A DNA stretch of 64,000 nucleotides from NCBI GenBank assembly GCA_041651035.1, contig JBAZKC010000001.1, forward strand, positions 515,244 through 579,243, in the 5' to 3' direction. The notes beneath the pieces were generated by a model. The model was not told where the DNA came from. It searched no databases and saw only the letters and a program-made list of their open reading frames with translations. The translations under genes were made by a program, and so were the position numbers. This document shows, piece by piece, positions 8,906 through 42,600 of this stretch. The first letter of the stretch is position 1; every line of letters begins with the position of its first letter. Source of the DNA: Candidatus Omnitrophota bacterium. Lineage in GTDB: Bacteria > Omnitrophota > Gorgyraeia > Gygaellales > Profunditerraquicolaceae.

Positions 8906-10006
8906 ATGAATATACCCTGGGCGCGGCCGTATTTCTGGGGTAGGGAACAAGAGTTTGTGGCTGACGCGTTAAATTCATCCTGGATTTCCAGCGGCCCGTA
9001 TGTCGGAAGATTTGAAAAGGAATTTGCCGATTATCACGGCGCGCGGTTTTGCATTACCACGTCGAGCGGGACCAGCGCGCTGCATTTGGCTCTTTTGGCT
9101 ATAGGTGTAGGCCCGGGAGATGAAGTTGTTGTGCCGGGCTTTACATTTATCGCTCCGGTCAATATGATCATTGCTGTAGGTGCTAAGCCGGCCTACGCTG
9201 ATATCGATCCGGATACCTGGTGTGTTGATACGGCATGCGTCGAGCGGAATATCTCAGCCAAGACAAAAGCGATTATGGCGGTCCATCCCTACGGGAACGT
9301 CTGTGATATGGCAGCTCTGCGGCGTTTAGCTGATCGGCGCGAACTTTATTTGGTTGAGGACTCCGCTGAGGCGTTATTTTCAAGATACCGCGGTAAATTA
9401 GCCGGGACATTCGGAGATATCGGCTGTTTTAGTTTTCAGGCAACCAAGGCCATCACTACCGGAGAAGGCGGTTGCGTTATTACATCAAATAAGGAATTAT
9501 CTTCCAGGATGCGTCTTATCCGCGACCACGGCATGTCTGGGCCGCGGAAGTATTGGCACGATATCTTAGGATACAATTTCCGGTTGACTAATATACAGGC
9601 GGCGTTGGGGTGCGCGCAGTTTAAAAACGCGTCGAAGATCATATCAGCCAAACGTAAAATATACTCTCTCTACCTGCGGCATCTTAAGAATGAGGAAGGG
9701 ATCAGATTACAATTCATTAAGCCTAAGGTCGAGCCTGTATTCTGGTGCGTAGCCGTTGAAATAGACCCCGCGGTTTTTGGCGTAAGCAGAGATTCGCTTA
9801 TGAGGCGTCTGTTATTATCCGGGATCGAGACCCGCCCGGGATTCTATCCCGCAAGCCTTATGCCTTTTTACCGCGCGCCAGCTTTACCTGTGTCTGAACA
9901 TATCAGCGCCAGGGCTATAAGCCTTCCCTCGTTTCTGGCGTTAACGGAGCCCCAGATCAGATACGTATGCAGCCGCTTAAAGAAATTAAGGAAAAAGGGC
10001 GTATGA
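8906..10006 (+). CDS. DegT/DnrJ/EryC1/StrS-family sugar aminotransferase (PLP-dependent)
   Basis: MNIPWARPYFWGREQEFVADAL…, FSFQATKAIT (PLP lysine), DHG…NFRL. Start at ATG 8906, directly after the upstream stop. Confidence 0.75.
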   Translation: MNIPWARPYFWGREQEFVADALNSSWISSGPYVGRFEKEFADYHGARFCITTSSGTSALHLALLAIGVGPGDEVVVPGFTFIAPVNMIIAVGAKPAYADIDPDTWCVDTACVERNISAKTKAIMAVHPYGNVCDMAALRRLADRRELYLVEDSAEALFSRYRGKLAGTFGDIGCFSFQATKAITTGEGGCVITSNKELSSRMRLIRDHGMSGPRKYWHDILGYNFRLTNIQAALGCAQFKNASKIISAKRKIYSLYLRHLKNEEGIRLQFIKPKVEPVFWCVAVEIDPAVFGVSRDSLMRRLLLSGIETRPGFYPASLMPFYRAPALPVSEHISARAISLPSFLALTEPQIRYVCSRLKKLRKKGV

Positions 10007-23287: not shown

Positions 23288-24190
23288 ATGCAAAAGCAGC
23301 GCATAATTCTATTAGCCGGCGTGGGTTTGGCTTTGATAGTGGTAGTCCTTATCAAAGTTTACCTTGACCAGCAAAAGCAGGTCGCAAGTGAAGAGGCGCG
23401 CAGAGAAGCGGCGAGATTGCGGGCATCGTCGGTAGCGGTGCTTATAGCCAAAGATAATATACCCAAGGGGACGCTGGTCAAACAGGAATTATTAGAGACA
23501 AAGGTAGTGCCTTCCCAGGAGCTTATGCCGCAGGCAGCCACTTCTTTAGACAGGATCTCCGGCATGGTTACTATGGTAGTAATACCTAAGGGCCAGCAGA
23601 TTACTTTAAATACGCTGAGTTTCCCCCGGCAGGCAGGCGGTTTAGCGGAGGTGACTCCGGTTGGCAAGCGCGCGGTTACTATTAACGCGGACAATATCGC
23701 CAGCCTCGCGGGAATGATCAAGCCGGGAGATTATGTGGATATGATCGCCATGATCCCTGTATCCGTGCAAATCTCTGAAGGGAAACAGGCGACCCAGTTA
23801 GCCTCAGTGCCATTATTTCAGAACGTACTTGTTTTAGCCGTGGGCCAGGATATAGGTACAATGGCTCAGGCGGGAGCGGGAGGCAGGTACAATAAAGGAG
23901 AAGGGGTCCAGCAGCAACGGCAAGAAATTTCTTCTCTTATTACCATCGCCCTTAATCCCCAGGAAGCAAGCCTTATTTCATTTGTTCAGGAACAAGGTAA
24001 ATTACGCTTAGCTTTGCGTTCGCCTGCGGATTCTCAAACCCAGCAACTAAAGCCGATAGGATGGGAAGCCCTCTTCCAGTATTTGATGCCCGCGGATACA
24101 GCCAAGCAGCCGAAAGAAGAGATTAAGCCGGTCGGATATGTAGAGATATACCGCGGCCTTAAGAAAGACAAGGTTTCTTATCCAAAATAA
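23288..24190 (+). CDS. cpaB: Flp pilus assembly protein CpaB/RcpC
   Basis: N-terminal TM anchor followed by a SAF/CpaB-like domain. Gene order sits upstream of the secretin. Confidence 0.7.
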   Translation: MQKQRIILLAGVGLALIVVVLIKVYLDQQKQVASEEARREAARLRASSVAVLIAKDNIPKGTLVKQELLETKVVPSQELMPQAATSLDRISGMVTMVVIPKGQQITLNTLSFPRQAGGLAEVTPVGKRAVTINADNIASLAGMIKPGDYVDMIAMIPVSVQISEGKQATQLASVPLFQNVLVLAVGQDIGTMAQAGAGGRYNKGEGVQQQRQEISSLITIALNPQEASLISFVQEQGKLRLALRSPADSQTQQLKPIGWEALFQYLMPADTAKQPKEEIKPVGYVEIYRGLKKDKVSYPK

Positions 24191-24200
24191 AGGAGCAGTA

Positions 24201-25802
24201 ATGAAAAAAGCCTTATCAATTGGTCTCTTACTTATATTTAATTTTATGAGCCTTCCTTTGGCAGGCTATGCTTTGGATGAGAGCGGAGGAGAAATCAAGT
24301 TAGTCGTCGGAGAAGTTACGATAATGCCGGTCAATAATCCTACGCGTATTGTCATAGGCAATCCTGATATAGCAGATGTTTCCGATGTTGCCAAGAATGA
24401 AATGACCATTGTACCCAAAGCCCCGGGCACGACTAATATGGTATTATGGGATAACTTTGGTGAACAGTCTTATGAGGTCAGGGTTATCGCTGAGAATATG
24501 GACGCGGTTAAGCGCCGCATTGATATATTAATAGGAAGGCTTAATCTACCGCAGGTCTATACCCAGATAGCGGAAGACGAAGGCAAGGTCCTTCTTTTAG
24601 GAAGAGTTAAGGCTCCGGCGGACAGAGAAAGGATCGCTACTGCCCTGGGTCCGTTAAAAGATAAAACAACAGACCTCATTGTAGTAAAAGAAGAAGAGGC
24701 AGTGGTAAATATTGACGTGCAGGTTTTAGAGTTAAGTAAAGATGCTACTAGCACTCTGGGATTTACCTGGCCGGGAGCCATAACATTAACTGATGTCTCC
24801 GCGGCCACGACTACAGCGACAACCGGGCTAGAGAAAGTTTTCCGTGTTTCCCAATTTACGCGTACAGCCTTTAATGTTACCTTAGATGCCTTGGTGCAGG
24901 AAGGCAAGGTCAATATTCTTTCCCGTCCGCGGCTTTCCTGTCAAAGCGGCAAAGAGGCGGAATTATTGGTGGGCGGAGAGAAGCCGATTTTTACCACGAC
25001 AGTCGCTGCTACTACCGGCGCATCGGGCACATCCATAGAATATAAGGAATACGGTATTAAGCTTAAGATAAAACCCACCGTAACCGACGATAAGAAAGTA
25101 AAGCTGGCATTAAACGTAGAAGTAAGCGAAGTAGGCACTGTGGATACTATCGGGACTACTTCTACCGGTGAAGTCACGGCTAAGGCCTATCCTTTGACTA
25201 AACGCAACGCTTCCACTGAGCTTCTCCTTAATGACGGGCAGACTATGGCCATAGGCGGGCTGATGAAGCAGAAGACCGAAGAAGCCGTCCGTAAGACTGC
25301 CTGGGCGGGAGATCTGCCTATAGTGGGGGCGCTCTTCAGGCAAAAGACTACCAAGGTGGGCGGAGGCATAGGCGAAAGAGGCAATACAGAATTATTTATC
25401 ACTCTTACCCCTACCGTATCCAGTGAAGAGAAGAAGGCGCCGGAAGTTAAAAAAGAGATCACGCCAAAAATAAGTTCTTCCGGAGCCAGCGATATTAGTG
25501 GAAATACTTTAGGCCCTAAGGCCTTATACGCCACAATTATACAGAAACGCATATTAGAGAATATGATTTATCCTTCTTTAGCCAAAGAAGCTGGTTTCCA
25601 GGGGGAATTAAAGTTGAGCCTGCTCTTGTCTTATCGGGGCGAACTTTTAGAGGCAAGGCTTAAAGAATCCTCGGGGTATAAGATATTGGATGACCAGGCT
25701 GTCAATGTGGCTAAGGGGATTGCTACGTATCCTCCTTTCCCTTCCTCTATAGAGCAAAAGGAACTCTGGATAGATGTTCCCATAGCCTATCAGTTGGATT
25801 AA
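24201..25802 (+). CDS. cpaC: Tad secretin CpaC/RcpA with a C-terminal TonB_C-like domain
   Basis: Secretin domain (…LSRPRLSCQSGKEAELLVGGEKP…GGLMKQKTEE…IPIVGALFR…). Last 100 aa (YPSLAKEAGFQGELKLSLLL…SSGYKILDDQAVNVAKGIATYPPFP) match the TonB C-terminal domain pattern. Confidence 0.7.
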   Translation: MKKALSIGLLLIFNFMSLPLAGYALDESGGEIKLVVGEVTIMPVNNPTRIVIGNPDIADVSDVAKNEMTIVPKAPGTTNMVLWDNFGEQSYEVRVIAENMDAVKRRIDILIGRLNLPQVYTQIAEDEGKVLLLGRVKAPADRERIATALGPLKDKTTDLIVVKEEEAVVNIDVQVLELSKDATSTLGFTWPGAITLTDVSAATTTATTGLEKVFRVSQFTRTAFNVTLDALVQEGKVNILSRPRLSCQSGKEAELLVGGEKPIFTTTVAATTGASGTSIEYKEYGIKLKIKPTVTDDKKVKLALNVEVSEVGTVDTIGTTSTGEVTAKAYPLTKRNASTELLLNDGQTMAIGGLMKQKTEEAVRKTAWAGDLPIVGALFRQKTTKVGGGIGERGNTELFITLTPTVSSEEKKAPEVKKEITPKISSSGASDISGNTLGPKALYATIIQKRILENMIYPSLAKEAGFQGELKLSLLLSYRGELLEARLKESSGYKILDDQAVNVAKGIATYPPFPSSIEQKELWIDVPIAYQLD

Positions 25803-25808
25803 AAAACA

Positions 25809-27980
25809 ATGGCCAAGAGAATAGTTATATTCAGTACAAAGGGCGGAGTAGGTAAAACCTTAATCGCGGCTAATTTAGGCGTAAGCCTCGCCAAAGAACA
25901 AGGCCGGAGAGTTTGTTTGGTAGATCTAGACCTGCAAGGCTTAGGCGATATGTCCAGGATGCTGTATCTTGACCCGCAAAAGGCAATGGTAGATCTAATC
26001 CCCGTTATCAGGAAGCAGCCTCAAGTTGCAGCCTCGGGTTTTAATAAAAAAGACTTTTTGACTTCAAGCACGCTGGGCCTGGATTTCTTGCCCGGAGTTT
26101 TAAGGCCGCAGCAATCATCCCATCTTGATCCGTCAGCGGTTAAAGAAGTATTCAGCCTACTAGATAAAGATTATGATTATATAATTATAGACGCGGGCAA
26201 TAATTTCAGTGAAGTCTTTATTGCCACATTGAATCAAGCGAATCTGCTTCTTTTGGTAGCTACCCCCGACATACTCTCCATACATCAAACCAAATGGGCC
26301 TTAGAGACCCTGCAGCTCTTGCATTTACCTTTATCTATGGTGAAGATTGTTCTTAACAGGGCAGAATCCACCTCGAGCATTAGCTGGCAAGAGGTAATGG
26401 TTAGCGTACCCTGTGATATTATCGCTCAGATACCCTCTGAAGGAAAAGCAGCGGGCATGGCGGTAAATCAGGGTATCCCCGTGGTTGTGGACAGCCCCAA
26501 GGCAAAGATCTCTCAAGCCATAAGCAAGCTTGCCAAGCAATTGGCCAGTGAACAGAATTTATTTACCGAGTTAAAAGAGATAGACCAGTTACACGTTAGA
26601 GAAGTTACAGTAGAAAAGGCGGGGGAATTATGGGAAAAGGAAGGTTTGGTTGAGCCTTTGGTTGAAGATGCTCTTAGCGAAGAAGCAGACGAGATACTGG
26701 TATTGAAGCGCCGCATAAATAAACGGCTTATAGATGAACTGAATATTAAGAGGCTGGATTTAAAGTTGTTCAGCGATACTAAGAAGACCAAGGAGTTAAG
26801 GACAAAGGCTGAAACAAAAGTGGCTAATCTTATGACTGAAGAAGCAGGCAGCCTTATCCCTTCTCCTGATGTGCGCAAGAAATTAATAAAGGAGATCCTG
26901 GATGAGGCTTTAGCCTTAGGCCCTTTAGAAGACCTGCTGGCGGATACCAGCATAACCGATATTATGGTTAATAATAAAGATGAGATATATATTGAGCGCA
27001 ACGGTAAGATCGAGCTCACGGATAAGAAATTTATTTCCAATGAACAGGTCAGGACTATCATTGAGCGTATAATTGCCCCTATCGGCAGGCGTATTGATGA
27101 ATCTGTGCCTATGGTAGATGCCAGGCTTCTCGATGGTTCCCGCGTAAATGCCTTAATTCCGCCTCTTTCATTGACTGGCCCGACACTGACCATAAGGAAA
27201 TTCCGGAAAGAAAGGTTCAAGATCGAGGAACTGGTTAGGCTTAGGGCCGTGAATTCGAACATGGCGGAATTTTTAAGGGCCTGCGTATTATCCAGGAAGA
27301 ATATGATCATATCCGGAGGTACGGGCTCAGGCAAGACCACCGTGCTTAATATCCTTTCGGAGTTCATACCGGATAACGAGCGTATTATTACTATTGAAGA
27401 TGCGGCGGAATTAAAACTTCATCAGGAACACTGGATAAGATTAGAGTCCAGGGCGCCCAACATTGAAGGCAAGGGCGCGGTTACCGTAAGGGATTTATTC
27501 AGGAATACGTTGAGAATGAGGCCGGATAGGATTATTATCGGCGAGTGCCGTGGCATTGAAAGCCTGGATATGCTTCAGGCAATGAATACAGGCCACGATG
27601 GTTCAATGACCACAGTGCATGCCAATTCTACCCACGACGTCTTAATGAGGCTTGATTCTATGATCCTAATGTCGGGGGTTGAGCTTCCCATAAGGGCGAT
27701 CCGCGAGATGATCGCCTCAGCCATAGATTTGGTCGTCCATACCGCCCGTCTTTCAGATGGGAGCCGGAAAGTCATCCAGGTAACAGAATTAGTCGGGATG
27801 AAGAATGATATAGACGTTAACCTTCAAGATATCTTTGTTTTTAAGCAGACAGGTATAGATAACAATGGTGCTGTTATGGGTGATTTCCAGGCTACCGGCT
27901 ACGTTCCTTCCTTTATTAAAGAGATAAAGATGAAAGGTATATCTTTATCTGATAATGTCTTTACTCCCCCCGTTTCCTAG
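25809..27980 (+). CDS. cpaF: Fused CpaE-like ParA/MinD ATPase plus CpaF/TadA secretion ATPase
   Basis: N-terminus has FSTKGGVGKT (deviant Walker A). C-terminal half has ISGGTGSGKTT plus VirB11/TadA-type motifs (…RPDRIIIGECRG…). Confidence 0.75.
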   Translation: MAKRIVIFSTKGGVGKTLIAANLGVSLAKEQGRRVCLVDLDLQGLGDMSRMLYLDPQKAMVDLIPVIRKQPQVAASGFNKKDFLTSSTLGLDFLPGVLRPQQSSHLDPSAVKEVFSLLDKDYDYIIIDAGNNFSEVFIATLNQANLLLLVATPDILSIHQTKWALETLQLLHLPLSMVKIVLNRAESTSSISWQEVMVSVPCDIIAQIPSEGKAAGMAVNQGIPVVVDSPKAKISQAISKLAKQLASEQNLFTELKEIDQLHVREVTVEKAGELWEKEGLVEPLVEDALSEEADEILVLKRRINKRLIDELNIKRLDLKLFSDTKKTKELRTKAETKVANLMTEEAGSLIPSPDVRKKLIKEILDEALALGPLEDLLADTSITDIMVNNKDEIYIERNGKIELTDKKFISNEQVRTIIERIIAPIGRRIDESVPMVDARLLDGSRVNALIPPLSLTGPTLTIRKFRKERFKIEELVRLRAVNSNMAEFLRACVLSRKNMIISGGTGSGKTTVLNILSEFIPDNERIITIEDAAELKLHQEHWIRLESRAPNIEGKGAVTVRDLFRNTLRMRPDRIIIGECRGIESLDMLQAMNTGHDGSMTTVHANSTHDVLMRLDSMILMSGVELPIRAIREMIASAIDLVVHTARLSDGSRKVIQVTELVGMKNDIDVNLQDIFVFKQTGIDNNGAVMGDFQATGYVPSFIKEIKMKGISLSDNVFTPPVS

Positions 27981-28036
27981 GGACACCCTTTTTGCCAATC
28001 GAGGGACACCCAGTTTGCCAAAGCTAAGGGTGTCCC
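27980..28036. repeat. REP cluster A: GGGACACCC x2 (direct) plus GGGTGTCCC (inverted)
   Basis: Copies at 27980-88, 28003-11 and 28028-36. Same unit architecture as clusters B and C. Confidence 0.7.
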
Positions 28037-28400: not shown

Positions 28401-28457
28401 GGGACACCCTTTTTGCCAATCGAGGGACACCCTCTGAGCCAATCGGGAGGGTGTCCC
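28401..28457. repeat. REP cluster B: GGGACACCC x2 plus GGGTGTCCC
   Basis: Copies at 28401-09, 28424-32 and 28449-57. Near-identical to cluster A, including the tttttgccaatcga spacer. Confidence 0.7.
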
Positions 28458-28476: not shown

Positions 28477-28959
28477 CTAAGTAGAATCAGGAAAATCTAT
28501 TAGTCCTGTTTTGTTACCAAAAACCCTGTCTTTATAACTGCTCCAGGGATAATCTGTAAGTATAGAGACTAAACCCGCCCTTAGCGGATTCATTTCAATA
28601 TAATAAACACAATCAATAAAATAATTGTCTTTTTGGATAACCATACTTTTGAATCTTCCTTGCCAGAGACGGCCTGGTTTTTTGTATTTGTTGTTGAACC
28701 AAACAGTGTACGTCTGGGTTAAGCCTTGCATAAATAATGCCAGATCATTAGGGTTTTTCGGCTCTAAAATGAGATGAATATGGTTTGGCATAAGGCAATA
28801 ACCAAATATTCTAAAGGCATATTTCTTCTTAAAGTGCTTTAATAGTTGCAGGTATTTCTCGAAATCCGCATTTTCTAGGAATATTCTTTGTTTTTGATTA
28901 CCCCTATTGACAACATGATAGCATGCATTATTTAAGATAATTCTTGCTCCTCTAGGCAT
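28477..28959 (-). CDS. REP-associated tyrosine transposase (RAYT; IS200/IS605 TnpA-like, Y1/HUH)
   Basis: HUH motif MPNHIHLIL. YHVVNRG near the N-terminus. C-terminal catalytic Tyr region (YIEMNPLRAGL). Flanked by REP clusters B and C in inverted arrangement. Confidence 0.7.
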   Translation of the reverse strand: MPRGARIILNNACYHVVNRGNQKQRIFLENADFEKYLQLLKHFKKKYAFRIFGYCLMPNHIHLILEPKNPNDLALFMQGLTQTYTVWFNNKYKKPGRLWQGRFKSMVIQKDNYFIDCVYYIEMNPLRAGLVSILTDYPWSSYKDRVFGNKTGLIDFPDST

Positions 28960-29024: not shown

Positions 29025-29072
29025 TAAGCTTCAGGGGACACCCTTAGCTTTGGCAACTTGGGTGTCCCTAAT
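29025..29072. repeat. REP cluster C (GGGACACCC / GGGTGTCCC) followed by an ATGTCCAATCT motif
   Basis: 29026-34 and 29051-59. ATGTCCAATCT at 29062-72 recurs three times upstream of the giant gene. Confidence 0.65.
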
Positions 29073-29081
29073 GTCCAATCT

Positions 29082-29110
29082 GGATATAACTTGACAATGT
29101 CAGGACGCTA
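29082..29110 (+). promoter_or_regulatory. Consensus sigma70-type promoter TTGACA-N17-TATACT
   Basis: TTGACA at 29082-87, TATACT at 29105-10. Spacer contains GGACGCTAT, shared with the promoter at 39475. AGGAGG RBS and a TTG start at 29173 lie downstream. Confidence 0.55.
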
Positions 29111-29172
29111 TGTTATACTCTAATTGAGCTCAAGAATGTCCAAACTAGGGCTTATAAACGAGGAGGCACAAG

Positions 29173-31128
29173 TTGGGAGTTGTCTATAAATTAAAAGATG
29201 AAATAAGAGATTTTATCGTAGAGAAAAAGAGATCAAACCAGGTCTTAAGTTGCCGGCGTATGTCTCTTTTAATTGAGGAGAAATTTAAGTCAAGGATATC
29301 TAAATCCAGCATTAACGCCATTATGAAAGAGGCCGGCTTGAGTATGCCGGTAGGAAGAAGGTTAAAAAAGAGAAGGCGCGGGCAGCAGGTGCCGCCTAAT
29401 TTGATAGAATTCAAGCCTATAGATGTGCCTTCTGAGATCAAAGAAGCGATCTCGCCTCTTAAGCCTATTACAGTTCAATCAAATATAACCCCTCCATCTG
29501 AACCAGTTATACCTCTGCCTGTTGTACCCTCGGCACCAGAACCTATTGTGGAGCAGCCTGTTGCGACTCCGGAGCCAGAACATATTGCGGAGCAACCAGT
29601 TACACCATCTCAGCCCGAGCCTGCTATAGAACAACCAGCAGTTATTCCTCCGCCTGAGCCGATTATAACCCCGCCAGCTGAGGTCCCGCCACCGCAACCT
29701 ATTGTGGAACAACCAGTTGTGGAGCAGCCTGTTATAGAACAACCGGTTCCTGCGGCACCTACGCCGGTTGCCGCGCCAACACCAATAGAAGAGCCAGTTG
29801 TCGCGCATATTGAGCCTCCGTCGGAGACGGAATGCACAGGGGCGATATTACTTAAGGCCACAGATTATTTAATAAAAGGTAGTTTCAATATCGCAGAGGC
29901 AGTCAAAGGCCGGTTAAGTAAACAAGAAGGAGATCTTTTGACTAAAACAGAAAGCCTGATTTATCTATCTTTATTTGAAAAGGATCTTCCCGGACTTTGG
30001 GCGTTTATAGACAGGCAGTTATCCGCAGAAGGCATAACAACTTATCTCAATGAACTGCAATCAGTTAGCGCATTAAACTCAAATATTCTTCGTGCTATTT
30101 CCAGCGCCTTACAAGAAGTCCGTTGTATCAAAGCTAATTGTTTGGGCGGGGATATTTTTTATTTAGATGGCCAGATGCACACTGTTTGGTCAACCCAGTA
30201 TATACCGTATGATTTCTCCGCAACTATTTACGACACAAAGAGTTGCATAAATAGATATTTCTTCGGAAGCGATCCTTTTGTTTTGTTTGTGGCGCCTGGC
30301 TATGATATCCCTACCAGGGAATTCTTTAATTTTATCTTAAGCCTAGCCTCCAAAGAGAAAACAATCGCCAACTTAACTCTTTATAATAATAAACTTGAGG
30401 AATTAGAGGTTGTCCATTTGGGCCAGCCAAAGAAGCGTTATTTTATTTGCGGGTTCTACCCCTGGCAATATGTGGAGTACCGCAAGGTCTATAAAATAGG
30501 GGAATTCAGGCCGTTCTACGCGGAGGCATTGCATAAAGATATTTATGGCGCGGACATAGAGATTGAGCTATCACAAACAGTTGGTATACAACATGTTATG
30601 TTAAGGGGGTGTGCTTTAAAAATGACTCCGGATGAGAAGACGCGCCTGGTAGTATTAAGCAATTTCGCCTATGGAGAGATCAAACCGGAAGATCTGGCAA
30701 ATACTTACCTGAACCACTGGCCAAACCTGGAAGAATGTTTTCAGGATTTCAGCCGAAAAATAGAGCTCTTTACTTACACCGCTGCCTCACGGCGTTTTTT
30801 CTCTCCGGATTTCCTTAATTTTGACAGCGGATCCAGCCAGGATATCAAGACGCTCTTTAATAATTACCTGAAAGCGCTTGATCTGTATATCAGATGGCAC
30901 TTCCTGCCGCTGGGTTATGAAGACAGCGATTTCTCGACGGTAAATGAGCGTTTTTACAGCCTAAAAGTCAGGCTTAAAAGAGAAAAAGGATATTGCCTGG
31001 CAATTTTTCAGCCTCCCTCAGGTTATGCTTATCTAAAGGAACTTGAATACGCCTGCCGCCGCGTAAACGAAAAAGAGATAATTGATCTCCACGGCAAAAA
31101 ATTACAGTTCAGCGTTGCTTCCCAGTAA
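29173..31128 (+). CDS. Hypothetical protein: N-terminal HTH-like region, proline-rich tandem-repeat linker (PEPIVEQPV-type), and a 430-aa C-terminal domain with faint DDE-transposase (IS4/IS1634-like Y..[RH]W..E…K) resemblance
   Basis: TTG start with AGGAGG 6 nt upstream. Residues 90-215 are a Pro/Glu/Gln-rich imperfect repeat. YLNHWPNLEECFQDFSRK resembles the Y-x2-R-W-x-I-E-x2-F-x3-K signature of IS4-superfamily transposases. Confidence 0.45.
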   Translation: MGVVYKLKDEIRDFIVEKKRSNQVLSCRRMSLLIEEKFKSRISKSSINAIMKEAGLSMPVGRRLKKRRRGQQVPPNLIEFKPIDVPSEIKEAISPLKPITVQSNITPPSEPVIPLPVVPSAPEPIVEQPVATPEPEHIAEQPVTPSQPEPAIEQPAVIPPPEPIITPPAEVPPPQPIVEQPVVEQPVIEQPVPAAPTPVAAPTPIEEPVVAHIEPPSETECTGAILLKATDYLIKGSFNIAEAVKGRLSKQEGDLLTKTESLIYLSLFEKDLPGLWAFIDRQLSAEGITTYLNELQSVSALNSNILRAISSALQEVRCIKANCLGGDIFYLDGQMHTVWSTQYIPYDFSATIYDTKSCINRYFFGSDPFVLFVAPGYDIPTREFFNFILSLASKEKTIANLTLYNNKLEELEVVHLGQPKKRYFICGFYPWQYVEYRKVYKIGEFRPFYAEALHKDIYGADIEIELSQTVGIQHVMLRGCALKMTPDEKTRLVVLSNFAYGEIKPEDLANTYLNHWPNLEECFQDFSRKIELFTYTAASRRFFSPDFLNFDSGSSQDIKTLFNNYLKALDLYIRWHFLPLGYEDSDFSTVNERFYSLKVRLKREKGYCLAIFQPPSGYAYLKELEYACRRVNEKEIIDLHGKKLQFSVASQ

Positions 31129-38337: not shown

Positions 38338-39192
38338 ATGCTTCTGGTAATTTATATATTCTTAGCTGCGGCAGCCGCGCTTGTCATAATTGGTATATCA
38401 GGCTCTATCCAGCCTGGAGCGAGGCGCGCCCCGCTTCCCCATCCGCAGGCGAACAGGCCGCGAGTAAGCTTCTCTTTCAGCCAGAAATTATTAGAGAAAC
38501 TCAAATTGGATGTAAAAATAAAGAATAAATTAGCCGCTGCCCATGTGATGAACATTACAGCCGGCCAGTTCTTTGATATCAGGCTTGCCCTGCTGGTTAT
38601 CGCGGGCAGTATGAGTTTTCTCCTTCTAAAGAAGATCGACCCTCCGGTAATGCTTATATTCCTTGCCTTGGCATATCTTATTCCCGATCTGTGGCTGAAA
38701 AGGAAGATAAGCCAGCGTAAATACGAGATCGCCCGGGTCCTGCCCGAGACAGTAGATCTGCTGGGTTTATGCGTAGAGGCAGGCCTGGATTTTACTACGG
38801 CAGTAAAATGGGTCATTGAAAAGAAGGTCTCTGCTAACCCTATGGTTGAAGAATTAGCCCTGGTATTGGATGAGATAAAATGGGGCAAGCCGCGCAGCCA
38901 GGCACTAAAGGATATGGCTAAGAGATTGAATGTCCCGGAAGTAAGTTCCTTTGTCCAGGCCCTGGTGCAGGCAGAGCGCATGGGTACGCCTGTAGGAGAG
39001 GCATTTGGCATCATATCTGAAGATACCCGTTTACAGCGTTTTCGCAGGGGAGAGCGTTATGCCCTGCAAGCTCCCATAAAGATCCTTCTGCCTTTGATTT
39101 TCTGTATATTGCCGGTAATCGGTATTATCATTGGCGGCCCTATACTCTTACAGTTTACTCAAGGCGGTTTATTCACCGGATTTGCTAAATAG
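38338..39192 (+). CDS. tadC: Flp pilus assembly protein TadC (T2SS-F domain)
   Basis: T2SSF-like core (…ALKDMAKRLNVPEVSSFVQALVQAERMGTPVGEAF…) plus TM helices. Confidence 0.7.
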   Translation: MLLVIYIFLAAAAALVIIGISGSIQPGARRAPLPHPQANRPRVSFSFSQKLLEKLKLDVKIKNKLAAAHVMNITAGQFFDIRLALLVIAGSMSFLLLKKIDPPVMLIFLALAYLIPDLWLKRKISQRKYEIARVLPETVDLLGLCVEAGLDFTTAVKWVIEKKVSANPMVEELALVLDEIKWGKPRSQALKDMAKRLNVPEVSSFVQALVQAERMGTPVGEAFGIISEDTRLQRFRRGERYALQAPIKILLPLIFCILPVIGIIIGGPILLQFTQGGLFTGFAK

Positions 39193-39193
39193 C

Positions 39194-39361
39194 AATGTCC
39201 AATCTAGTCTTAAATCAAGCTAGTAATGTCCAATCTATAGGGACTGTCCCCAGCCTTAGTTATGATGCACCATTCTTAATCCATTAAATGTCCAATCTAA
39301 TAGATACAGGGACTGTCCCCGAAATGTAGCTTCTGGTGGGCTGTTCTTAGGGGACTGTCCC
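39194..39361. repeat. Array of short repeats: 3x AATGTCCAATCTA interleaved with 3x GGGACTGTCCC(C) quasi-palindromes
   Basis: AATGTCCAATCTA at 39194-206, 39225-37 and 39287-99. GGGACTGTCCCC at 39240-51 and 39309-20, and GGGGACTGTCCC at 39350-61. Confidence 0.7.
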
Positions 39362-39474
39362 TAGATTTTGAGCTATTTTTGCCCCAAATCAACAAGATTA
39401 TTGGCCTTGTTAACCCATTACTAATGCAAAGGATTGCGGAAAAGAAAGCGCTCTCTTTAGAAGCAAAAACACAC

Positions 39475-39504
39475 TTGACATGGACGCTATCTATATGTTA
39501 TACT
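39475..39504 (+). promoter_or_regulatory. sigma70-type promoter TTGACA-N17/18-(T)TATACT for the giant gene
   Basis: TTGACA at 39475-80. Spacer contains GGACGCTAT, as at 29088-104. TATACT at 39499-504. About 190-nt leader before ATG 39697. Confidence 0.5.
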
Positions 39505-39642
39505 TGCGATGTAAACAGAAAGATTTGAAAGGCAATTTTTATTTCAGCTCTTTATAAGAAGTTTCACAAAGGACTTAATATTTACGTATGAAAAGCGTTA
39601 ATCTGAGCGCTATGATGAATAGAAAAAGTCTTCGGGGTAAGG

Positions 39643-39666
39643 GGAAAACTGTGCTTTTTCCTTTTT
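39643..39666 (+). terminator. Weak terminator/attenuator-like hairpin in the giant-gene leader
   Basis: GGAAAA-ctgtgct-TTTTCC followed by TTTTTAT; only 2 GC pairs, so it is weak. Confidence 0.2.
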
Positions 39667-39696
39667 ATATAGGTATTACCGTAACAGGTGAATAAA

Positions 39697-42600
39697 ATGG
39701 ATAAAGGCGGATACAAGAAAACCGAACCAGAGAATAAGCCACTAGGAAAAAAGGGACTGTCCCCGCAGGGGACTGTCCCTGGAACGTTCAAGTCTAGTTT
39801 CAAGGCTTGGATCCGCGTAGTGGCTTTTTTAGTGGTCGCGGTTTTCTTGCCTGAACAAGTAGCCCAGGCAGTGGAATATGACTGGCGCGTTATCTGGCAA
39901 AAGCCGGCTGTCTATACTTCCTCTTATGCCAATACCAAAGATATACACAATGCCGACATACCGCTTGCCATCAGGGACATCCTAAAAGATATATCAGGCA
40001 AGCCCGTAAATGCTATAAAGATCTCGCCCACCGTAACCGTAGAATTAAGCAAGCCGTTAAATATCTCCAAACAGAGAATTGAAGAAATATACAACTGGTT
40101 AAGAGGCAAGACCTGCGGCTCAAAGGCATTATATGACCTATTAAGCTACAAGGGTTTTAAGGTTGCTGAGCAGGATATCGCGGTCATGGCCTTGACCATA
40201 GATATATTAAACGATGTAGTAAAGGCTGAAGGCAACCCCAAGGTTATTAAGACGTCTTTATACGCCTTGTCTAAGGCATCAGAATCCTTCGGTTTAAAGC
40301 TTTACCCCGTAAAAATGGATTTATCACAGGGACTATCCCCAAAGGGGACTGTCCCTTTCATTGCTCACCTGAATTCCGACCACTATATCCTGGTAACCCG
40401 CGTAACCGATGAAAAAGTTTATTTTGTAGAGGAGCACAAAGAGGAGTTCCTGCCTAAAGAAAAGTTCCTGAAAGATTTCTCCGGGTATTGTCTGATAAGC
40501 CGCCAGCCTTCAGCTATTGGTCTGGAATCAGTTAACGATGCCGAAGCTAAGAAGATACTCGGCGCGCGTTCTTACAAAGGGGAATATGCCGATTTATCTT
40601 CCTTATTTGAAAAGCCGTCAACCAGTGATTTATTGATGAGCTTAGGCATGACTGTAGCTACGGTCGCCATAGGCGGGATTGGTGGAGGATTCTCCAACGC
40701 GATTGTTAGTTTCGGGACAGCCTGTTTTACCAGCCAGGTAAGCGGAGCGCTTACTACTATGGCGCAAAAAGAACTTGGCTGGAGTCCACAAGCTTCAGCG
40801 CTTTTAGGCATGGCTGTAGGCAGCGGGTTGAATATGGGCCTTAGCGCAAGTATGTCCTCTACTATATTGGGCTCTGGGAAAACCGGCACGTTTACCTCGT
40901 TTAAATATGCCCCGGCTGGTGTCCAGGCTTTTGCGGCAAATCATCCTTTTGTGGCCGGTTTTGCCGCAGGCACGCTTATGGGTGCCGCTCAAGGCGGTTT
41001 ACAGATTGTTTTAAATGATGCTTTTAGCGGCATGGATTCTTCACTTAGATATGGTTTATCCGGATTATTGAGTTCTACCGCGGTAACCTTTGGCTCTAAT
41101 GCTTTAATGGGTGCGCTTCCTGGGGGGAGTGGCGGCTGGGATGCCATAAAAGACACTTGGAATGCTAACAATAAACAGCTCCCCAAATATATGCTTACTC
41201 AAGGCATTGCTTTAGGAGTTGAGTATTTAGCTACAGAGACAGGTTTTATGAAACCCGAATATAGCCGTATCTTAGGCCAGGGTTTGGGTTCTTTAATTAC
41301 AGGATTTGCTTTCAAATCACCCGGAGGAATCGAACAACCCGGTAGATGGTTTACCATAGAGGATTCTCCTTTAGTGACTACGCTGGGCAATGCGGTTATA
41401 GATGGTTTAATTAGTGGGGGTATATCTGTTGGGTTAACTAAACTATCCAATGCCACCGAAGGGAATGAGTTTTTAGATGCGGCAACACCTTATATGGCTA
41501 TGTTGGTTTCAAACGTGCTTTATGCCGGGTATCATAGCTGGATAGCGAAAGATTTGTATTCTGCTCCTAGCCTTAGCGGAAATGGCACTATTTATGGAAC
41601 TGAAAAGCAATTGAGGGAACTTGGTATAACCAACCTGGATTTAACGCAGCATGCTACTTTTCTGGATCTAGCGTATGGGCAATCACAAAATATAGCGCGC
41701 GAGCACCTGACTTTTGGATACAGTTCTCCTTTTACACCCGCTGCATGGTTACAAGGCCAGCAGGAATATACCACTTTTAACTTCGCTTTATTCAATAACA
41801 AGATGTGGGATTTTACCGGCTTGACCTATTATGTTGACGCAGCCAAGCAGGCACAGGATACCTTAAGGAAGAACGGCGGGAATCCTGATGATTGGAGGAA
41901 ACAACAGATCCTGCCCGATTTTATGCAGTCCCTGGTTTATTATAACCGTTCATTTGCCAATGCCCAGGCAACCAATACCTTCGCCGATTTATTCAGAGAT
42001 GTCTATGCCAATGATCTAGGTGGCAATAAATTAGGAGCGTATCAAGCGGGGTGGGTACTAAAAGACGGGGAATTGACGAAAGTTAGTTTTAATAACGCGT
42101 TAAAGACATCGTACGGCAATAATGTGTTCGGCACTTATAATTCTCTTGCAGATGTATATGGGAAACAATTATCTTGGAATCAATCTTTTTATTCTAACAT
42201 CGGACTTACAAATGAATGGTGGCTGGGAATGTCATCAAGCTATATATACCCGGTTTTCGGGGGCAGGCTCGGTAATGATATCTTCCCTATGGTAGATGGG
42301 TCACCAATAAAGGAAAATACCACAGGTAGCTTAACCACTACTCTAGACATTTATAAAAATAAAGGCGGTATCTCTACAGTAAACATAGATACTGACACTC
42401 GGAAAACAATATTAGAAGTGGCGGGAAAATATAAGCAGGATATGGGATTAGAGGAGATGCCTTTAATCCAACGCTACAAGAAAGATAATGGTGGCGAAAT
42501 CATTTTATCTGAAGTCTTAATAGGGCCTTTAGATGGGAAGATGCCCCTTTCTACGAGAGATTGGGATTTAGTGCAAACGCTTGGTGGCCAGCCTACGCTT

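Follow-up and report, generated by a model that had tools for sequence, protein, structure and literature searches.

The repeats that flank TIRYT genes share the motif GGGGWSAS and are organized in clusters or as dimers, and REP dimers inside genes are on record (Di Nocera, De Gregorio & Rocco 2013, PMC3733652). The units that we describe here, which were found around the beginning of a giant Omnitrophota gene, resemble these TIRtron/TIRYT TIR repeats (PMC3733652) in that their core matches GGGGWSAS, in being partly or wholly self-complementary, and in their arrangement in dimers and clusters, but differ from them in that many copies are intragenic and that the transposase gene of the window (the whole 64-kb stretch of DNA analysed) is flanked by related hairpins rather than by the unit itself. 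With the REP/REPIN-RAYT systems of E. coli, Pseudomonas and Stenotrophomonas (GTAG-REPs) they have in common that short, G+C-rich imperfect palindromes are joined as inverted pairs into one long hairpin, that repeats are found between operon genes (locus L116) and that the associated RAYT passes the NCBIfam REP_Tyr_transpos cutoff. In contrast to REP/REPIN sequences, the copies in the window have no GTAG head, and their arms measure just 13 nt and are nearly self-complementary; in contrast to classical species-specific REPs, the core is identical across phyla. Classical REPs are dispersed through the genome in high copy number and are mostly extragenic; the 64 kb covered here hold seven copies, four of them within a gene. 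Like intragenic REPs (PMC3733652) and the Rickettsia palindromic elements (RPE; Ogata et al. 2000), the units represent in-frame palindromic selfish DNA that leaves the gene intact, often as dimers, sometimes twice per gene and in surface-exposed parts, although each pair adds 9-18 residues compared with ~30-50 for RPE-1, the host is a giant Omnitrophota gene, and the element family spans many phyla. An earlier note on this DNA had called intragenic REPs unusual, which is overstated, given that they were catalogued in 2013 (PMC3733652): the in-frame insertion in surface loops at the start of the giant gene is real, yet the phenomenon was already known. Neither the text nor the supplements of PMC3733652 contain the exact unit GGGGACWGTCCCC, and a full-text literature search with the literal motif returned solely unrelated eukaryotic primers.

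In the window, GGGACWGTCCC (GGGACTGTCCC) occurs six times without mismatch (39240, 39309, 39351, 39753, 39769 and 40345), compared with a chance expectation of 0.02 copies; six were reached in none of 100 shuffles. A seventh copy, at 40329, carries one mismatch (GGGACTATCCC), and beyond these no copy with zero or one mismatch is present anywhere in the 64 kb. All seven lie between 39240 and 40355, that is within ~1.1 kb around one promoter, four of them are intragenic, and all have the T centre on the plus strand, for which the odds by chance are 1 in 64. Their layout is that of three pairs able to form a hairpin, AGGGACTGTCCCC-loop-GGGGACTGTCCCT, and a single orphan; the pairs measure 29-55 nt, and each folds as one hairpin with a single T.T mismatch (Table 1). 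The count of three upstream copies (39240-39361) given in the earlier note is correct, but what it termed an array is one orphan plus one pair with a 29-nt spacer that folds as a single hairpin; likewise, both tandem pairs that it placed inside the giant ORF are present, but pair 2 combines one exact with one degenerate copy, the first of the two bearing a stem-weakening G>A change. The tetramers preceding the seven copies are ATAG, ACAG, TTAG, AAAG, GCAG, ACAG and AAAG, none of them a GTAG (GTRG) head, and the minus strand of the copies at 39350, 39768 and 40344 reads GGGGACAG, which contains GGGGWSAS. As to the hallmarks of MITEs, which are terminal inverted repeats with target-site duplications and derive from a DDE-type IS, inspection by eye revealed no target-site duplication at the insertion sites, and no related IS was seen. 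Rfam returned nothing on the motif, either at gathering thresholds in the window and 16 loci or in a permissive E-value search of 39150-40450. The idea that GGGACTGTCCC is a TIRtron "empty-site joint" with abutted termini was set aside, the copies being looped REPIN-like pairs and not singletons.

Table 1. Coordinates of the repeats, genes and promoter-like site in the window
Feature	Position	Strand	Remarks
Giant ORF, >8,101 aa	39697..64000	+	Extends past window end; N-terminal membrane anchor, Peptidase_C39-like domain
Promoter-like site of giant gene, TTGACA-18-TATACT	39475..39504	+	Conserved in orthologues; repeats on both sides
Orphan repeat unit, AGGGACTGTCCCC	39239..39251	+	Intergenic, ~225 nt upstream of promoter-like site
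Intergenic pair, AGGGACTGTCCCC-(29 nt)-GGGGACTGTCCCT	39308..39362	+	One hairpin with T.T mismatch; DNA fold -13.5 kcal/mol, z -4.4
Intragenic pair 1, AGGGACTGTCCCC-GCA-GGGGACTGTCCCT	39752..39780	+	Encodes G20-L-S-P-Q-G-T-V-P28; fold -13.1 kcal/mol, z -4.3
Intragenic pair 2, AGGGACTATCCCC-AAA-GGGGACTGTCCCT	40328..40356	+	Encodes G212-L-S-P-K-G-T-V-P220; fold -9.5 kcal/mol
REP-associated tyrosine transposase (RAYT/TIRYT, HUH Y1), 160 aa	28477..28959	-	NHIHL motif, Tyr120
Related hairpin repeat, GGGACACCC...GGGACACCC-loop-GGGTGTCCC	27980..28036	+	Near RAYT gene
Related hairpin repeat	28401..28457	+	Adjoins RAYT gene 3' end; fold -15.7 kcal/mol
Related hairpin repeat, GGGACACCC-loop-GGGTGTCCC	29035..29068	+	Immediately upstream of RAYT gene; fold -10.5 kcal/mol

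The giant ORF starts with ATG 39697, an in-frame stop being located upstream at 39682, and its residues 186-269 match Peptidase_C39. Tad/T2SS-like machinery is encoded beside it. According to the predicted structure, pair 1 falls within a disordered N-terminal tail (residues 1-26 have pLDDT <50), and pair 2 lies in the loop between strands E203-207 and E221-225. As reported before, pair 2 immediately precedes the FIAH motif of the C39-like domain (G212-P220, then F221-I-A-H224); the nearly invariant P220 is encoded by the end of the pair.

In both intragenic pairs of the window the start-to-start spacing is 16 nt, and the two copies of each pair are therefore read in different phases, GGA-CTG-TCC-CC giving GLSP and GGG-ACT-GTC-CC giving GTVP, which bears out the two frames noted earlier. 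The unit is free of stop codons in all six frames and encodes the Gly/Pro-rich tetrapeptides GLSP, GTVP, GQSP and GDSP. One phase, GLSP followed by GTVP, is common to every intragenic pair of the giant-gene family, which requires either peptide-level selection or shared ancestry, and the Cys-encoding frame (D-C-P) is used in just 1 of 29 copies within long ORFs. Both observations would fit a peptide GLSPxGTVP that is selected at the protein level, for example as a protease site or flexible linker, with the identity of the DNA as a by-product. However, the halves of each pair are the same DNA encoding different peptides, three identical copies are intergenic, and in other genes the same DNA in opposite orientation yields GQSP and GDSP. 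Moreover, the repeat codons are identical among orthologues, whereas the codons around the inserts diverge (mean column identity 59%). We consider selection of the peptide very unlikely and rejected it because the DNA is read in two frames, some copies are intergenic, and copies in opposite orientation encode other peptides in other genes.

The orthologous Omnitrophota giant genes contain the identical DNA motif too, and its place in the protein varies among four sites. Copies are present at codons ~199-207 (L003), ~148-159 and 214-225 (L002), 147-156 (L207), 260-277 (L209), ~267 (L208) and 203-212 (L210), and the copy at codons 20-28 occurs in the window only; all four insertion sites are either the disordered tail or loops of the predicted C39-like fold. 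Besides GGGACTATCCC in the window, decayed copies are found in L002 (GGGGGCTGTCCC), L207 (GGGACTCTCCC) and L208 (GGGACTGTTCC), with degenerate peptides in P0033 and P0004, and the motif is absent from the orthologous loci L001, L204, L205 and L206 (75 kb together). Since positions vary, several copies decay and four orthologous loci have none, it is the DNA that is conserved rather than the peptide, as the earlier note had claimed. In agreement, the orthologue comparison, which had been set beforehand as a test, revealed no case in which a GLSPxGTVP peptide keeps fixed positions while its DNA diverges, and no peptide encoded by synonymous, non-palindromic codons was seen among the orthologues. 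The variable positions provide an indirect sign of mobility. In the orthologues, copies were seen only in the first ~280 codons, and this clustering, together with that in 1.1 kb of the window, is tighter than predicted for a freely dispersing element.

In L210 a covarying variant, GGGTCTGTCCCC-GCA-GGGGACTGACCC, replaces A:T by T:A and preserves the hairpin. Such a compensatory, stem-keeping change, the strong folds of the window pairs (-9.5 to -13.5 kcal/mol as DNA, z -3.3 to -4.4) and the fact that REPs are known as RNA elements (PMC3733652) are compatible with a scenario in which the elements came as REPs and now function at the RNA level, where hairpins early in the coding sequence would slow translation initiation or elongation, or would protect or target the long mRNA. 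This is improbable, however: the L210 covariation is equally explained by another repeat subfamily (GGGGACAGACCC, as in L146 and L183), the elements in the MiaB gene of L063 are oriented opposite to transcription, the stem of pair 2 in the window is weakened by mutation, and positions differ among orthologues.

The presence of palindromes on both sides of a promoter, some of them in coding sequence, is reminiscent of auxiliary operators such as lacO2 in lacZ and galOI in galE. Accordingly, the units might be operators bound by a dimeric regulator of the giant gene, the intragenic sites being squeezed into tolerant loops, and the upstream (39240-39361) and downstream sites (+250, +830) might cooperate by looping, as do lacO1/O2/O3 or galOE/OI. 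The sites are indeed near-perfect palindromes of 11-13 bp that cluster on either side of a strong promoter-like site and are found nowhere else in the 64 kb. In addition, the c-di-GMP riboswitch that controls orthologous giant genes is lost in the window, so replacement control would make sense. In contrast to lacO2 and galOI, these sites occupy positions that are not conserved in orthologues, four orthologous loci lack the motif, and copies decay; the same sequence is, moreover, scattered through unrelated genes, including housekeeping genes and operons, of many unrelated phyla. L002 and L003 carry intragenic copies and have kept the riboswitch, the conserved promoter of L001, L002, L003 and L204-L206 has no copy nearby, and the upstream region of all loci already contains the TGTCCAATCT boxes, another repeat, which is truly conserved. 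We thus judge a function as operators to be unlikely, and the alternative raised in the earlier note, a protein-binding site within the gene, is disfavoured.

A transposase of the REP-associated type is encoded in the window. This RAYT scores 84.2 bits with NCBIfam NF047646 (cutoff 80) and 6e-16 with Pfam Y1_Tnp, and its N59-H60-I-H62-L motif and Y120 are invariant in the alignment of RAYT homologues (A2). It is located ~10 kb upstream of the giant-gene repeats, and is no more than a candidate mobilizer of the GGGACTGTCCC copies, since its flanks are related GGGACACCC...GGGTGTCCC hairpins and not GGGACTGTCCC itself; these flanking hairpins contain a GGGGWSAS match, GGGGACAC, at 29034. RAYTs directly adjoin the giant gene in three orthologous loci, and, among the matches listed, RAYT homologues are present in 4 of the 120 loci that match the pair pattern. 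Across usable metagenomic RAYT loci, a set of RAYT homologues that lies apart from the window's own GGGACTGTCCC copies, 26 of 62 have, on either side of the gene, the arms of an exact 10-nt inverted repeat that starts with GGGAC (GGGAC.../...GTCCC). GGGAC ranks top of all 1,024 pentamers at these brackets, with GGGTC second as a class. Bracketing of the gene by repeats at fixed distances, like the conserved HUH motif and catalytic Tyr, is shared with TIRYT (PMC3733652), and in L150 the RAYT homologue is bracketed by GGGACAGTCCC pairs themselves. The search for a cognate-type enzyme, proposed in the earlier note, has hence identified a RAYT flanked by related hairpins in the window and ties the motif to this family in other phyla.

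The pair pattern matches at least 120 loci, and the matches listed include Planctomycetota, Actinomycetota, Omnitrophota, Proteobacteria, Firmicutes, Acidobacteriota, Bacteroidota, Patescibacteria and others; the Omnitrophota MAG E14_maxbin.165 alone has at least five pairs on two contigs. In L116 the pair is intergenic in an arg operon and carries a GTAG head, which is also found at copies in L058 and L072. In-frame pairs reside inside MiaB (three in L063, one in L083) as well as in a restriction-modification methyltransferase, a glycosyltransferase, a CobQ-like protein, a PKS and an RND pump. In loci with a GC content <0.5, to which ORF-based intragenic calls were confined because those from loci with GC >=0.5 are unreliable, 29 of 80 copies sit in ORFs of >=300 aa. 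A short, over-represented motif next to Tad/T2SS-like machinery could also be a genome-wide signal, that is a DNA uptake sequence, a Chi/KOPS-like motif or a HIP1-like iterated palindrome. Its distribution led us to reject this idea, to which we attach hardly any probability: seven copies fall in 1.1 kb and none in the remaining 63 kb, most 8-kb blocks around the matches in other genomes contain just the pair, and the motif is missing from the 75 kb of orthologous Omnitrophota sequence. Insertion into the lagging-strand template is likewise unsupported, because orientation does not track GC skew: across 105 loci the T-centred strand showed no association with local GC skew (45 versus 60, p = 0.17). 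The plus strand of the window is G-rich throughout, which proves nothing alone.

We propose that the GGGACTGTCCC units belong to the REP/TIR class of non-autonomous palindromic repeats, which accompanies RAYT/TIRYT HUH Y1 transposases (probability about 0.75); the orthologue comparison and the cognate-type transposase support the earlier suggestion of a REP/MITE-like element tolerated in frame. The hallmark of the family is the hairpin foot GGGGAC...GTCCCC, with an inner stem and loop that differ by lineage; the 13-nt arms are nearly self-complementary because the inner stem itself is (T)GTCCCC. Two arms and a short loop would give a hairpin of 27-55 nt with its T.T mismatch, which as single-stranded DNA may be recognized, cut and pasted in trans by a RAYT-type transposase. 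Copies may accumulate locally because such a transposase sits 10 kb upstream or, in orthologous loci, adjoins the giant gene. As the unit is stop-free and Gly/Pro-rich, insertions that keep the frame would survive in disordered tails and surface loops, where they are probably neutral for the protein, and inserted copies would afterwards decay through point mutation. An extended version of this model is doubtful, namely that a phylum-spanning superfamily with GGGGAC...GTCCCC feet exists, of which the stop-free GGGGACWGTCCCC is the minimal self-complementary form and routinely colonizes coding DNA, that in Omnitrophota the concentration in the 5' part of the giant gene stems from a RAYT habitually resident beside it, and that in the window the promoter cluster was co-opted for control, as protein-bound DNA or as an mRNA hairpin, after loss of the riboswitch.

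According to these data, the tiny hairpin repeat tied to RAYT/TIRYT extends to Omnitrophota as well as to many other phyla, and its 11-13-nt core is identical among them. The practical value of the locus lies more in its surroundings, where the conserved promoter, the lost c-di-GMP riboswitch and the conserved upstream box array together make the regulation of the giant genes testable. For annotation, recurrent GLSP, GTVP, GQSP and GDSP are to be read as a signature of the repeat and not as a protein motif. Real proteins, among them MiaB, PKS, efflux pumps and the products of giant predation-type genes, acquire short Gly/Pro-rich inserts from the repeat, which in evolutionary terms represents a further case of selfish DNA contributing loop residues to proteins.

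The exact palindrome GGGACWGTCCC occurs six times in the 64-kb window (39240, 39309, 39351, 39753, 39769 and 40345) against a chance expectation of 0.02, which bears out the earlier note's claim of copies both upstream of and inside the giant ORF. When mismatches are allowed, 40329 (GGGACTATCCC) is the sole further copy, and other matches in a two-mismatch search of the 64-kb window did not exceed chance level. Both tandem intragenic pairs described in that note are present and read in different phases, with the correction that the 40329 copy of pair 2 is inexact. Taken as 13-mers, the copies fall into two mirror types, AGGGACTGTCCCC and GGGGACTGTCCCT; the seven point the same way, with the T-centre on the + strand, and lie inside 1.1 kb, a clustering tighter than free dispersal predicts. 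According to DNA folding, every pair forms one hairpin with a single T.T mismatch (pair 1 -13.1, pair 2 -9.5 and intergenic pair -13.5 kcal/mol; z -3.3 to -4.4). Because the 16-nt spacing shifts the phase, the halves of one intragenic pair yield GLSP and GTVP; direct reading of the sequence reveals no stop codon in the unit in any frame.

The giant ORF starts with ATG at 39697 and exceeds 8,101 aa, since its reading frame is unclosed at base 64000. Its product carries an N-terminal membrane anchor and a Peptidase_C39 match (aa 186-269). With its first 350 residues as query, 56 partial N-termini of Omnitrophota giant proteins were found, in which GLSP...GTVP-like peptides occupy four distinct alignment places; in an AlphaFold model (mean pLDDT 71.7), these sites correspond to a disordered tail or inter-element loops. 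The orthologue peptides are coded by the identical nucleotide motif, exact in the orthologous loci L003 and L002 and with 0-1 mismatch in L207, L208, L209 and L210, and the motif was not found in L001, L204, L205 and L206 (75 kb together). This recurrence of the same DNA at four positions, between flanking codons that diverge (mean column identity 59%) and with some orthologues empty, upholds the view that the nucleotide motif is conserved and not the peptide. Pair loops among the giant-gene loci measure 3, 13 or 29 nt, and several copies carry single mutations. Orthologue copies are confined to the first ~280 codons, again tighter than free dispersal predicts, and one reading phase is common to all intragenic pairs of the family. 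At the linker of the window's pair 2, L210 (2375-2403) holds GGGTCTGTCCCC-GCA-GGGGACTGACCC, in which a stem A:T is changed to T:A with pairing kept; its arms match the GGGGACAGACCC repeats flanking RAYT genes in L146 and L183, and therefore this loop of the protein has been used by a different repeat subfamily as well. In pair 2, the 3' end codes for V219-P220 (GTC CCT, window 40351-40356), of which P220 is nearly invariant, and repeat-free orthologues have a native ATT/CTN-GTC-CCC (I/L-V-P) at this site, like the repeat's GTCCC end (alignment A3); this resemblance may hint at target-site mimicry by the element. The pattern is that of insertions at sites where the protein is indifferent, followed by decay, and does not fit a conserved site. 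ORF calling in several orthologues places the C39-like N-terminal part in an ORF of its own (335-480 aa) ahead of the giant ORF (14,858 aa in L001, for example), which could represent a true split, an error of assembly or a frameshift; the window keeps this part in one continuous frame.

Coordinates of repeats, insertion sites and neighbouring features in the window and in orthologous giant-gene loci (L) and protein N-termini (P)
Feature	Position	Remarks
Orphan unit	window 39239-39251	intergenic
Intergenic pair	window 39308-39362	29-nt spacer
Intragenic pair 1	window 39752-39780	3-nt spacer; codes G20-P28
Intragenic pair 2	window 40328-40356	3-nt spacer; codes G212-P220
Peptide site 1, N-terminal tail	model residues 1-26	window only; pLDDT below 50
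Peptide site 2, past residue ~152	model residues 152-157	P0019, P0021, degenerate in P0033; between helices
Peptide site 3, linker ahead of PFIAH	model residues 208-220	window, P0008, P0003, P0019, P0004; between strands
Peptide site 4, past C39-like domain, residues ~260-277	model residues 268-275	P0002, P0009, P0005, P0004; domain end
Separate N-terminal ORF / giant ORF start	L001 10001-11443 / 11570-; L002 684-1691 / 1849-; L003 4209-5549 / 5703-; L205 10001-11224 / 11477-	
RAYT/Y1_Tnp	L001 8574-9278 (-); L205 6637-7362 (+); L208 391-951 (+)	between T2SSF genes and giant gene
c-di-GMP-I riboswitch	L001 9746-9837; L002 402-497; L003 3948-4032	
c-di-GMP-I riboswitch, also visible	L205 ~9715-9830; L208 ~1285-1395	
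(A/G)TGTCCA(A/T)TCT box	window 39190-39299 (x3), 29072, 29137; L003 3497-3590 (x6); L002 73-150 (x3); L001 9390-9450 (x3); L205 9455-9500; L208 985-1060	
GGGGTAAGGGG(A/G)A box	window 39634-39649	equivalent position in L001, L002, L003, L205, L208 (alignment A4)
RcpC/CpaB		Tad/Flp-like component
Secretin	window 24144-25799	C-terminal TonB_C domain
T2SSE ATPase	window 25809-27980	fused to N-terminal ParA/MinD-like domain

In a scan that took a single genome from each species, the pattern GGGACTGTCCC-N(1-30)-GGGACTGTCCC matched at least 120 loci, compared with a rough chance estimate on the order of two. The matches listed include cultured isolates and belong to Planctomycetota, Actinomycetota, Omnitrophota, Proteobacteria, Firmicutes, Acidobacteriota, Nitrospirota, Bacteroidota, Patescibacteria and others. 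Complementary A-runs and T-runs often flank the pairs and lengthen the hairpin. In the Omnitrophota MAG E14_maxbin.165, pairs with a GTAG head lie between arginine-biosynthesis operon genes, which is classic REP behaviour. At this operon locus (L116, 6575-6612), a decayed pair, GGGACTGTTCCCGAAGGGGACTGTCCTC, was seen beside an intact one, both with a GCCAGTAG head; the repeats therefore build up arrays locally and degenerate where they stand. In-frame calls were taken from low-G+C loci, where ORFs are trustworthy: among the matches listed with GC below 0.5, 29 of 80 copies fall within ORFs of at least 300 aa (frames GTVP 11, G[QL]S 11, DSP 6, DCP 1). Hosts of in-frame pairs are MiaB-type methylthiotransferases (Pfam UPF0004 and Radical_SAM; three pairs in L063, one at the same site in L083), a restriction-modification methyltransferase, a glycosyltransferase, a CobQ-like protein, a PKS of 2,364 aa and an RND pump. 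Local GC skew across the loci had no correspondence with repeat orientation.

Using the Pfam Y1_Tnp gene of L001 as query, we found a homologue in the window (28477-28959, minus strand), 10 kb upstream of the giant gene. It scores 84.2 against the curated NCBIfam cutoff of 80 for 'REP-associated tyrosine transposase' (RAYT), possesses the HUH motif and catalytic Tyr, and is flanked by three hairpins GGGACACCC-loop-GGGTGTCCC with the GGGAC/GTCCC foot of the motif and a different inner stem. RAYT homologues are present in 4 of the 120 pair-pattern loci listed, where ~0.2 loci are expected by our estimate for a roughly single-copy gene in a ~4 Mb genome. A metagenome scan with a RAYT alignment gave at least 80 loci, with usable flanks in 62 of those listed; in 26 of these 62, the gene lies between the arms of an exact 10-nt inverted repeat starting GGGAC (for example aaaaagGGGACAGGCTACttttt ... 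aaaaaGTAGCCTGTCCCCttttt), and GGGAC ranks first of 1,024 pentamers around RAYT genes, GGGTC being next as a class. GGGACAGTCCC pairs themselves bracket the RAYT of L150 and lie ~0.9-1.4 kb upstream in L128 and L165. In L205 and L208 the RAYT is directly upstream of the giant gene, each with its own hairpin family, one copy of which sits just upstream of the giant-gene promoter in L205. The form that unifies these repeats is a hairpin 5'-GGGGAC-X-loop-X'-GTCCCC-3' with lineage-specific X, the window motif having X = (T)GTCCCC. The gap that separates the T2SSF genes from the giant gene serves as a landing pad for accessory DNA; in L204 and L206 it contains toxin-antitoxin and abortive-infection genes (HEPN, MazE, AbiEii, PIN, Gp49/HTH).

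Inverted repeats of consensus GGGGWSAS, arranged as dimers and clusters and in some cases self-complementary, have been described on either side of tyrosine transposases ('TIRYTs'), and REPs within coding regions catalogued: mostly dimers, at times two per gene, and most numerous in the PVC bacterium Opitutus terrae (Di Nocera, De Gregorio, Rocco 2013, PMC3733652). GGGGACAG and GGGGACAC fit this consensus. The literal window unit is absent from the text and supplements of PMC3733652, and a full-text literature search found no bacterial paper on it; the unit is therefore newly reported within a known repeat class. The searched literature on Omnitrophota giant genes yielded no mention of palindromes, RAYTs or riboswitches.

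Orthologue leaders contain a c-di-GMP-I riboswitch (Rfam RF01051/RF03167, above gathering score) and then a terminator-like stretch. The window leader gave no Rfam match even at E<=1, and 39515-39545 marks a clean aptamer deletion of ~130-170 nt, which suggests that c-di-GMP gates giant-gene expression and that the window genome escaped such control. This loss would speak for a co-opted role of the copies in this genome, as operator or as mRNA hairpin; because in other loci such copies are found alongside the riboswitch, and also within unrelated genes, we consider the operator improbable and give the mRNA hairpin equally little credence. Upstream of the conserved giant-gene promoter, every orthologous locus examined has direct repeats of an (A/G)TGTCCA(A/T)TCT box, probably a binding-site array for a locus regulator; their distribution is unrelated to the GGGACTGTCCC repeats. 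A second, very similar promoter in the window (aacTTGACAatgtcaggacgctatgtTATACTct, ~29093-29125), flanked by this box, precedes a 651-aa ORF (29173-31128). Some 40-60 nt ahead of the giant-gene start codon, a conserved GGGGTAAGGGG(A/G)A box precedes a T-rich stretch and TATAGGTA, and could be a leader element for transcription or translation of the >24 kb gene. The machinery encoded upstream (window 23288-27980) is Tad/Flp-like, not a classical T2SS.

Shifting positions, decay and RAYT association support the earlier suggestion of a REP/MITE-like insertion tolerated in frame, with the class specified as REP/TIR. In the account we prefer, a RAYT habitually neighbouring the giant gene would drive local hopping of the repeats, and selection would then decide which frames and loops survive. 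The evidence supports selfish DNA of the REP/TIR class that the gene tolerates in frame, an element ordinary in kind and tidy in detail.
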